This document shows positions 49,575 to 50,352 of a stretch of DNA of 64,000 nt, piece after piece. A program made the translations under genes and the position numbers. The notes beneath the pieces are model-generated. The model saw only the letters and a program-made list of their open reading frames with translations, made no database searches and was not told the DNA's origin. Origin of the DNA: Minisyncoccota bacterium (lineage in GTDB: Bacteria > Patescibacteriota > Minisyncoccia > Phycocordibacterales > DASSSU01); NCBI GenBank assembly GCA_035708305.1, contig DASSSU010000020.1, forward strand, positions 8,481-72,480, read 5' to 3'. The first letter of the stretch is position 1; every line of letters begins with the position of its first letter.

Positions 49575-50069
49575 TTATTCTGTCTCTTTCAGTTTAATCG
49601 CATTTCCCATCTTCAGCGAGAGAAAGAAAATACCCGCTACAAAGGCACCGACTGTATCAAAAAATAGATCACCTAAAGTATCCAAAATGTTATTTGCTCC
49701 TCCCACCGGCATAATTTGATAGAGGTAGAGCAGAAGTTCAAAGACTTCCCACAAAACCCCGATCAGCAAACCGGAGAGAATGCCGGTCGCCAAAACGGAG
49801 AAGATTCCCGACTGATGTACCCTCCTTGGTCCCTGCTTTGTTTTTTCGATTCTTGACTCTTCCGGGAGACGCAAAAGGAAAAACCACAGGCCAATAGAAC
49901 CGGACCACAACCCGCCCAAGAAGTGCATCGGCATGTCAAACCATGGAAAATCCCAATACAAATGCACTTCCATAGCGAAAAAATTCACCACCCCGATAAA
50001 CACCAAAAGCCAAAAAAGCAAGAGCAGATATGTCCTTTTTTCCATGGGCATCATTATACCGCAAGGCAC
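49575..50069 (-). CDS. Small polytopic membrane protein (possibly VanZ-like), hypothetical
   Basis: 164 aa with 4 predicted TM helices. No clear motif. Confidence 0.35.
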   Translation of the reverse strand: MPCGIMMPMEKRTYLLLLFWLLVFIGVVNFFAMEVHLYWDFPWFDMPMHFLGGLWSGSIGLWFFLLRLPEESRIEKTKQGPRRVHQSGIFSVLATGILSGLLIGVLWEVFELLLYLYQIMPVGGANNILDTLGDLFFDTVGAFVAGIFFLSLKMGNAIKLKETE

Positions 50070-50139
50070 TTTTTTCGTAAATTTATAGAAGAAAATCTAC
50101 CCAAAGGTATAAGATTCTCGCCTTAACTTTAATTTTTAT

Positions 50140-50180
50140 ATTAAAAACAAAACAAAATCCCCTTTCGGGGATTTTGTTTT
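50140..50180. terminator. Bidirectional rho-independent terminator hairpin
   Basis: aaaatcccc-tttc-ggggatttt perfect hairpin flanked by A/T runs on both strands. Confidence 0.6.
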
Positions 50181-50306
50181 GGGCGGTTATGAGATATTAC
50201 CTAGCAAATTGCCAGGTGGGTGTCCTCCACTTTATGCCAATGGCGCAAAGTGAGTCGGGCTCCCTATAAAAACATAACCTAGTTAATATACAGCCATAAC
50301 CGCTCC
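50181..50306. ncRNA. Candidate structured small RNA (~125 nt) of unknown class
   Basis: 5' GCGGTTATG (50183-50191) pairs perfectly with 3' CATAACCGC (50295-50303) as a 9-bp closing helix. Internal GTGG/CCAC hairpin. It lies in a ~280-bp non-coding gap directly abutting a terminator hairpin. No ORF. Confidence 0.3.
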
Positions 50307-50352
50307 TTCATTATATGATACTTCTGCTGAAGTTCCAATGAATTTAGCTTTT

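Follow-up and report, generated by a model that had tools for sequence, protein, structure and literature searches.

A small structured RNA gene widespread in Paceibacteria is most likely a miniaturised and divergent 6S RNA

What is encoded in the gap of about 280 bp between VFM02_02285 and VFM02_02290 of this Minisyncoccota bacterium? The two NCBI locus tags are consecutive, so the NCBI record annotates no gene between them. By the names given to the two flanking proteins, the genome is a Candidatus Paceibacterota (CPR) MAG. Nearly all genes of the window, by which we mean the whole 64-kb stretch of DNA analysed here, lie on the minus strand. The sequence-only reading of the window had described the gap as non-coding, and we likewise found no convincing open reading frame between 50070 and 50352. 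It had also placed there a candidate for a structured small RNA, about 125 nt long, whose ends form a 9-bp terminal helix, with short hairpins in its interior and a strong terminator hairpin adjoining it. Two questions follow: is this element a gene and, if so, to which class of RNA does it belong?

The repeat underlying the proposed terminal helix is exact, with GCGGTTATG (50183-50191, plus strand) being the reverse complement of CATAACCGC (50295-50303). By itself this pairing is not evidence for a structured RNA, since perfect 9-bp inverted repeats separated by 60-150 nt occur 45 times in the 64-kb window compared to about 18 times in shuffles. Conversely, the fold as a whole is significant. 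The element alone has a minimum free energy of -44.7 kcal/mol (z = -4.6 against mononucleotide shuffles), and when the terminator is included, z against shuffles falls to -7.0 for the minus strand and to -6.6 for the plus strand. The adjoining hairpin at 50148-50181 is 15 bp long and G+C-cored, with A- and T-runs on its flanks. The element also has further hairpins in its interior.

Relatives of the element were sought through its neighbouring genes and through its own sequence. On the upstream side, the 335-aa protein is poorly conserved; its best relative was 40% identical and the genome scan was empty. Homologues of this protein at two loci (L001 and L002) had no such element downstream, and exact-protein look-ups returned the identical strain only (L003 and L004). 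A phage origin was considered and rejected, the phage collection holding no similar DNA. On the downstream side, an alignment of homologues of the neighbouring protein was used to fetch 80 loci from species-representative genomes, all of which belong to Paceibacteria or other Patescibacteria. A short-word BLAST of the element gave matches in 3 of these 80 loci, just upstream of the gene, and the three matches have GGGAG…GGACACCCACCU and the terminal helix in common with the window. A covariance model built from those four sequences, the window included (R1), identified the element in 75 of the 80 loci, always upstream of the gene and on the same strand.

Because this gene-anchored set is biased toward loci with the DUF2238-like neighbour, we compiled a gene-independent set by scanning metagenome contigs with the DNA pattern AGGGTTATN{28,35}GGGAN{36,42}ACCCACNTRG, which yielded at least 120 loci. 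When R1 was run on the first 100 of them, 98 were confirmed with one copy each in 674 kb, and the two that failed are false positives in coding sequence. Altogether, the covariance models give at least 173 homologues in Paceibacteria genomes and metagenomes. A second model, R2, was built from the 98 metagenome members alone with the window excluded. Its sole match in the 64 kb is the window element (50176-50307, minus strand; 69.5 bits, E = 1.2e-11), which shows that the window copy truly belongs to the family. Judged by these sequence models, the RNA family is widespread in Paceibacteria.

The alignments of these homologues support a common secondary structure. For 28 modelled pairs, about 90-91% of the cells are paired in both model-derived alignments compared to 32-48% in controls in which the 3' partners were slid. 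Compensatory changes are found at 19-24 of the 28 pairs, and none of 500 shuffles was as good as the observed pairing and covariation. As a structure-blind check, we used a MAFFT alignment of 103 non-redundant members, in which slid controls were 15-55% paired. In this alignment, pairing reaches 94.5% for the outer closing stem, 85.9% for the inner closing stem, 83.0% for the apical stem and 94.4% for the 3' hairpin. Across the same 103 homologues the closing stem comprises 23 pairs, which are 86-95% paired and of which 20 are compensated. Thus, the long-range pairing proposed from the single sequence is kept in about 170 homologues, with compensatory changes.

In the window, the 5' strand of the closing stem (50284..50303, minus strand) consists of an outer part, GCGGUUAUGG (50303-50294), and an inner part, AUAUUA (50289-50284), which pair with the 3' strand UAAUAU-CUC-AUAACCGC at 50183..50199. 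The closing stem measures about 17-23 bp, with about 20 bp in the consensus, and the outer stem 17-28 bp in the single-sequence minimum free energy folds of most members. The closing stem opens into a large asymmetric central bubble whose 5' strand, ACUAGGUUAUGUUUUUAUA (50265..50283, minus strand), is unpaired. The consensus strand is 16-19 nt long and starts with a conserved YCUAG that adjoins the closing stem. In the window this strand also holds GGUUAUG (50279-50273), which repeats the 5' strand of the closing stem inside the bubble. The apical stem follows at 50218..50264 (minus strand), with the base GGG-A-GCCC … GGAC-A-CCC, an internal loop, a distal helix and a UUGG loop. Its base, GGG-A-G…C-A-CCC, is invariant across the family, as are the GGG/CCC pairs. 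The next three pairs covary with four to six pair types each, and the distal helix is variable, covaries at 8 of 8 pairs and carries a loop of the CUUG/UUCG type. After one or two unpaired bases comes a small hairpin in the 3' strand of the bubble (YUAG…CUAG; CCUGGCAAUUUGCUAGG at 50200..50216 in the window, minus strand), which has 88-94% of its cells paired and returns to the closing stem. Core length is 121 nt for the window copy, and most relatives have 130-140 nt. In some members (L015, L029, L016, L010, L071, L080, L064 and L077, with RNA instances of 157-167 nt) the distal apical stem is enlarged by about 25-35 inserted nt; the core of relatives with this insertion is given as 160-167 nt.

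Transcription signals flank this structure on both sides. The promoter scan places a sigma-70-type promoter, TTGGAA-17-TATAAT, which matches at 10 of 12 positions, at 50338..50310 on the minus strand, with the -35 hexamer TTGGAA at 50333..50338 and the -10 hexamer TATAAT at 50310..50315. The predicted start, around 50303-50304, falls on the first base of the terminal helix (~50303). Of 163 homologues, 162 have a -10-like hexamer, which in 151 of them ends 6-7 nt ahead of the first paired base of the closing stem; the spacing in the window is the same. A -35 hexamer with at least four of six matches, mostly TTGCAA, is found in 79 of 163 relatives. The fixed spacing of the -10 in 151 homologues suggests that the RNA starts exactly at the closing stem.

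At the other end, the terminator scan lists an intrinsic terminator (50143..50181, minus strand) with a 15-bp stem at 50181-50148 and a U-run at 50147-50143. A hairpin followed by a U-run lies directly after the closing stem in all 163 homologues with enough downstream sequence, 100 of which were scored by an automatic test and 63 by eye. The hairpin had been taken for an adjacent bidirectional terminator. The scan lists it on the minus strand only, which argues that it acts as the element's own terminator. These predicted signals delimit the RNA as its own transcription unit running from ~50303 to ~50143, about 160 nt in length with a structured core of about 121 nt. Between closing stem and terminator lies an A-rich linker (50176-50182 in the window; in most members UAAGAAR). 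Its sequence is complementary to that of the U-rich tail (50138-50147), and the two change jointly, as CAUCAA/UUGAUG in L133 and ACGAGAG/CUCUCGU in L139. This complementarity implies that the terminator helix takes in the linker too, an extension that may shield the 3' end. With its own promoter and terminator, covariation and more than 170 related loci, the structured RNA of about 125 nt proposed for the gap holds up: the element is a small structured RNA gene on the minus strand.

We then asked which class of RNA this gene represents. 6S RNA, which binds and regulates RNA polymerase, controls bacterial transcription on a global scale and is typically about 180-200 nt long. At gathering thresholds, Rfam reports a single tRNA in the 64-kb window and nothing else. 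The window copy has no match to the Rfam 6S family (RF00013) either at the gathering score or at E <= 10, and permissive scans of the element return terminator-driven noise only. The sequence-only reading had seen no 6S motif by eye, but the relatives tell otherwise. RF00013 matches 7 of the 28 relatives scanned with 24.6-34.3 bits, all below the gathering score of 46.4 bits, a curated cut-off and not a biological property. The best match is L015:459-622, a member with the apical insertion, which scores 34.3 bits (E = 1.3e-5 when 301 nt are searched, 0.0016 for 37 kb). Scanning 20 further loci gave six more 6S matches at the element's coordinates and strand, with 24.6-33.4 bits. In the larger searches of 37-66 kb, the best relatives have E-values of 0.0016-0.0048. 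RF00013 is the sole Rfam family that matches the element repeatedly, on the right strand and at the right coordinates. The longer, insertion-bearing forms such as L015 and L029 are the best scorers against the Rfam 6S model.

In the cmscan alignment of L015, the invariant core lies on the 6S consensus 'GGGagccc … gggcaCCCACCUggaAcagCaGGuUCaAggg', the apical core aligns with 'GGGagccc…gggcaCCC', and the small 3' hairpin aligns to 'ACCUggaAcagCaGG' in the 3' bubble. The unpaired 5' strand coincides with the 5' side of the central bubble of 6S RNA and the terminal helix with the inner closing stem; the alignment has a deletion in place of the model's outer closing stem. The Rfam consensus flanking the bubble reads GGGagccc … gggcaCCCACCUgga…GGuUCaA, with the core of L015 in register, and the corresponding bubble-flanking sequence of the window is GGGAGCCC … GGACACCCACCUGG. 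The family core GGGAGCC…GGCACCCACCUGG…(G)UCAA thus coincides with the Rfam consensus.

The architecture points in the same direction. 6S RNAs form a rod made of a closing stem, a central bubble and an apical stem, and B. subtilis 6S-1 has a pre-formed small hairpin in the 3' bubble (PMC8876501). The family shares with the 6S-1 type an independent gene, a closing stem formed from both ends, an apical stem-loop and a large central bubble whose 5' strand is unpaired and whose 3' strand contains a small hairpin. It differs from 6S RNA in size, with a core of about 121-135 nt against about 180-200 nt and both arms shorter, in having an intrinsic terminator directly after the closing stem, and in being linked to a DUF2238-like gene and not to fau/ygfA. 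Ganapathy et al. (2022, PMC8876501) reported that 6S-1 truncated to the bubble and two short arms still goes through the complete 6S cycle in vitro, which makes a natural 6S RNA of about 125 nt mechanistically plausible. Those truncated molecules share with our element the bubble and short helical arms. They are laboratory constructs with roughly 10-fold lower polymerase affinity, whereas the element described here is a natural conserved gene.

Besides the short core, some results weigh against this identity. None of the family members tested reaches the Rfam gathering score, and the reciprocal search of E. coli ssrS with the family model gave no detection, including with filters off. No published 6S sequence with the CACCCACCU core was found in the literature searched or in the supplements of PMC8414754. 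In favour of the identity, no canonical 6S gene was found at the gathering score in the window or in 138 kb of related contigs, so that the element has no competitor for the 6S role there. Taken together, the comparison of sequences and predicted structures leads us to regard the element as most likely a 6S RNA (SsrS), miniaturised and divergent, rather than a new class of RNA. For the window copy, the link to 6S RNA as drawn from these alignments is a transitive one, running through its relatives.

If the element is a 6S RNA, its mode of action can be outlined after the known members. By analogy with the 6S cycle (PMC8876501), the rod with its open bubble would mimic an open promoter and sit in the active site of the RNA polymerase holoenzyme carrying the housekeeping sigma factor, so that transcription would be damped in slow growth. 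Upon nutrient upshift, the 5' bubble strand and the inner closing-stem strand would template a short product RNA, which would unzip the inner closing stem, cause the RNA to refold and free the enzyme (PMC8876501). The conserved YCUAG at the border of stem and bubble is a candidate start site for such a product RNA. In B. subtilis 6S-1, refolding involves a 'central bubble collapse helix', for which the distal part of the 5' bubble pairs with the inner closing stem's 3' strand (PMC8876501). In the window, GGUUAUG (50279-50273) could similarly capture the freed 3' strand; its complementarity to CAUAACC amounts to -8.9 kcal/mol (p ~0.02 against shuffles). Among 162 members, 25 have significant complementarity of this kind; the window copy is one of them, as are 18 of the 19 members of one clade, in which UUGAC/GUCAA covaries with UUGGC/GCCAA. 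We also considered the collapse helix as a family-wide feature and rejected it; it is confined to that clade and the window and is absent in the majority clade.

The neighbourhood of the RNA raises an alternative. In the window, the next gene downstream on the same strand (49575..50058, outside the RNA) encodes a small DUF2238-like membrane protein. In the Lipocone superfamily, DUF2238 is equivalent to the 'Wok' family, whose members are predicted to be membrane enzymes that modify or otherwise act on lipid head groups (bioRxiv 10.1101/2025.01.14.632903). The downstream protein family (49575-50054 on the minus strand in the window; P0044-P0084) is labelled PF09997 (DUF2238) in precomputed tables. 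In a Pfam scan, the window protein was unrecognised at E <= 10 and P0045 scored only 19.8 bits, which is below the cut-off. Members have invariant D, H, E and D residues (DMPMHFLGG … WExFE … DTxxD). Among the matches listed, a DUF2238-like gene lies directly downstream in 96 of the 120 pattern loci. The remaining loci, again among the matches listed, comprise about ten that end before any gene, about ten (including L087, L109, L128, L157, L170, L173, L187, L193 and L198) with a beta-CASP metallo-beta-lactamase RNase of about 455 aa (PF10996, PF07521), and a few with other genes. This tight linkage with its fixed orientation is not accounted for by 6S function.

Other features of these neighbourhoods vary from locus to locus. 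In two loci (L015:625-1460 and L057:590-1400), about 800 nt devoid of a credible open reading frame separate the RNA terminator from the DUF2238-like gene. This stretch is conserved, with similar spurious peptides in both, and has no Rfam match. A shorter, hairpin-rich insert is found between RNA and gene in L031 and L007. In 6 of 10 long metagenome loci, a tmRNA gene occurs within a few kb of the RNA (L087:6235-6635, L093:2784-3182, L130:790-1181, L135:7171-7550, L174:12267-12675 and L131:12734-13080), and SmpB is found 608 nt downstream of it in L181. The 64-kb window itself contains no tmRNA.

Structured RNAs encoded beside a protein partner are known, such as OLE RNA with the membrane protein OapA and Y RNA with Rsr. 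The RNA described here could by the same token be a lineage-specific stable small RNA that is not 6S but the partner of the adjacent protein, for example in a ribonucleoprotein with the DUF2238-like (Wok/Lipocone) membrane protein. The same-strand arrangement directly upstream of that gene in 75 of 80 gene-anchored loci and in the 96 pattern loci above speaks for this explanation, as do the RNA-handling enzyme downstream in about ten loci, the predicted nature of the RNA as an independent and fully structured transcript, and Rfam 6S scores below the curated threshold. The family also shares with OLE/OapA and Y RNA/Rsr the conserved linkage of a structured RNA to one protein gene, here that of a small multi-pass membrane protein. 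On the other hand, it resembles neither OLE RNA nor Y RNA in sequence or structure and has no Rfam match to them, and its linkage is not absolute: the RNA occurs also in the absence of a DUF2238-like gene within several kb, as in the four beta-CASP loci checked. Moreover, the 6S sequence and structure match lies exactly in the conserved core. Adjacency to a fixed gene is itself found for bona fide 6S RNA, as E. coli ssrS adjoins fau, which provides a precedent. We therefore consider a non-6S RNA with a protein partner rather unlikely, and a 6S RNA remains the preferred identification.

The two explanations may also be combined. A natural 'minimal 6S', or an RNA that has diverged from 6S, might, in these ultra-small and host-dependent bacteria, have its function coupled to the adjacent Wok/DUF2238-type lipid-head-group enzyme or to the beta-CASP RNase, which we consider unlikely. 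The RNA could in such a case tether or regulate the protein, or tie polymerase control to the membrane or to nucleotide scavenging. RNase J1, a beta-CASP enzyme, is reported to process 6S RNAs in B. subtilis (PMC10578484). With this precedent in mind, the association with beta-CASP genes may perhaps not be accidental. Should the coupling be true, it would constitute a new RNA-protein partnership and not merely another ssrS.

A cis-acting role has to be weighed as well. The element could be a riboswitch or attenuator for the DUF2238-like or beta-CASP RNase gene, with a three-way junction as aptamer and the terminator as expression platform. Like transcription-terminating riboswitches, the family presents a multi-helix junction that lies close to the promoter and has a terminal helix at its base, then an intrinsic terminator and a same-strand gene, an order conserved in more than 85% of the loci, and the RNA model ends a median of only about 64 nt from the ATG. 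What decides against this role is that the downstream gene appears to have a promoter of its own. In the window, a second promoter-like site, TTTACG-17-TATAAT (50081..50053, minus strand), lies ahead of the DUF2238-like gene, with its -10 TATAAT at 50058-50053, 7 nt before the ATG at 50045. In 134 of 143 homologous loci an in-frame ATG is preceded by a -10-like hexamer at a distance of 5-9 nt, compared to 19% of control ATGs, and in 97 of the 143 the distance is exactly 6 nt. A -10 so near the ATG implies a separate leaderless mRNA for the downstream gene. The beta-CASP loci are alike, their downstream gene having its own -10-like box before the ATG. Throughout the window, Shine-Dalgarno sequences are few and TATAAT-like boxes 6-8 nt before an ATG are many (for instance at the minus-strand starts 28681, 37914, 42566, 57707 and 50045). 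The genome would accordingly seem to make common use of leaderless mRNAs.

The helices of the RNA also speak against such a switch. Unlike that of a riboswitch, the closing helix, about 17-28 bp long, is constitutively stable and needs no ligand. A linker parts it from the terminator, and no conserved antiterminator pairing was seen in about 80 loci inspected by eye. The core, furthermore, matches 6S RNA. Given the leaderless promoter of the downstream gene (134 of 143 loci) and the long stable closing stem, we rejected the riboswitch as highly improbable. Finally, the chance of a fortuitous fold in an intergenic spacer that happens to hold a terminator is negligible, since, ordinary as the 9-bp inverted repeat is (45 in the window against 18 in shuffles), the comparative data, namely some 170 homologues with covariation, a fixed promoter spacing and an independent model with E = 1e-11, rule it out.

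In the literature searched, we found no paper on 6S RNA in the Candidate Phyla Radiation, and nothing relevant on DUF2238 riboswitches or on non-coding RNAs in this group. Annotation at Rfam thresholds appears to miss the Paceibacteria family. The near-obligate linkage to the DUF2238-like gene is a secondary lead. If the 6S assignment is right, the models described here would provide a covariance model for annotating 6S RNA across Paceibacteria. It would also mean that nature has a 6S RNA of about 125 nt, not far from the engineered minimal 6S-1 constructs, and would point to polymerase sequestration as a regulatory layer that has been kept in organisms with very few regulators.
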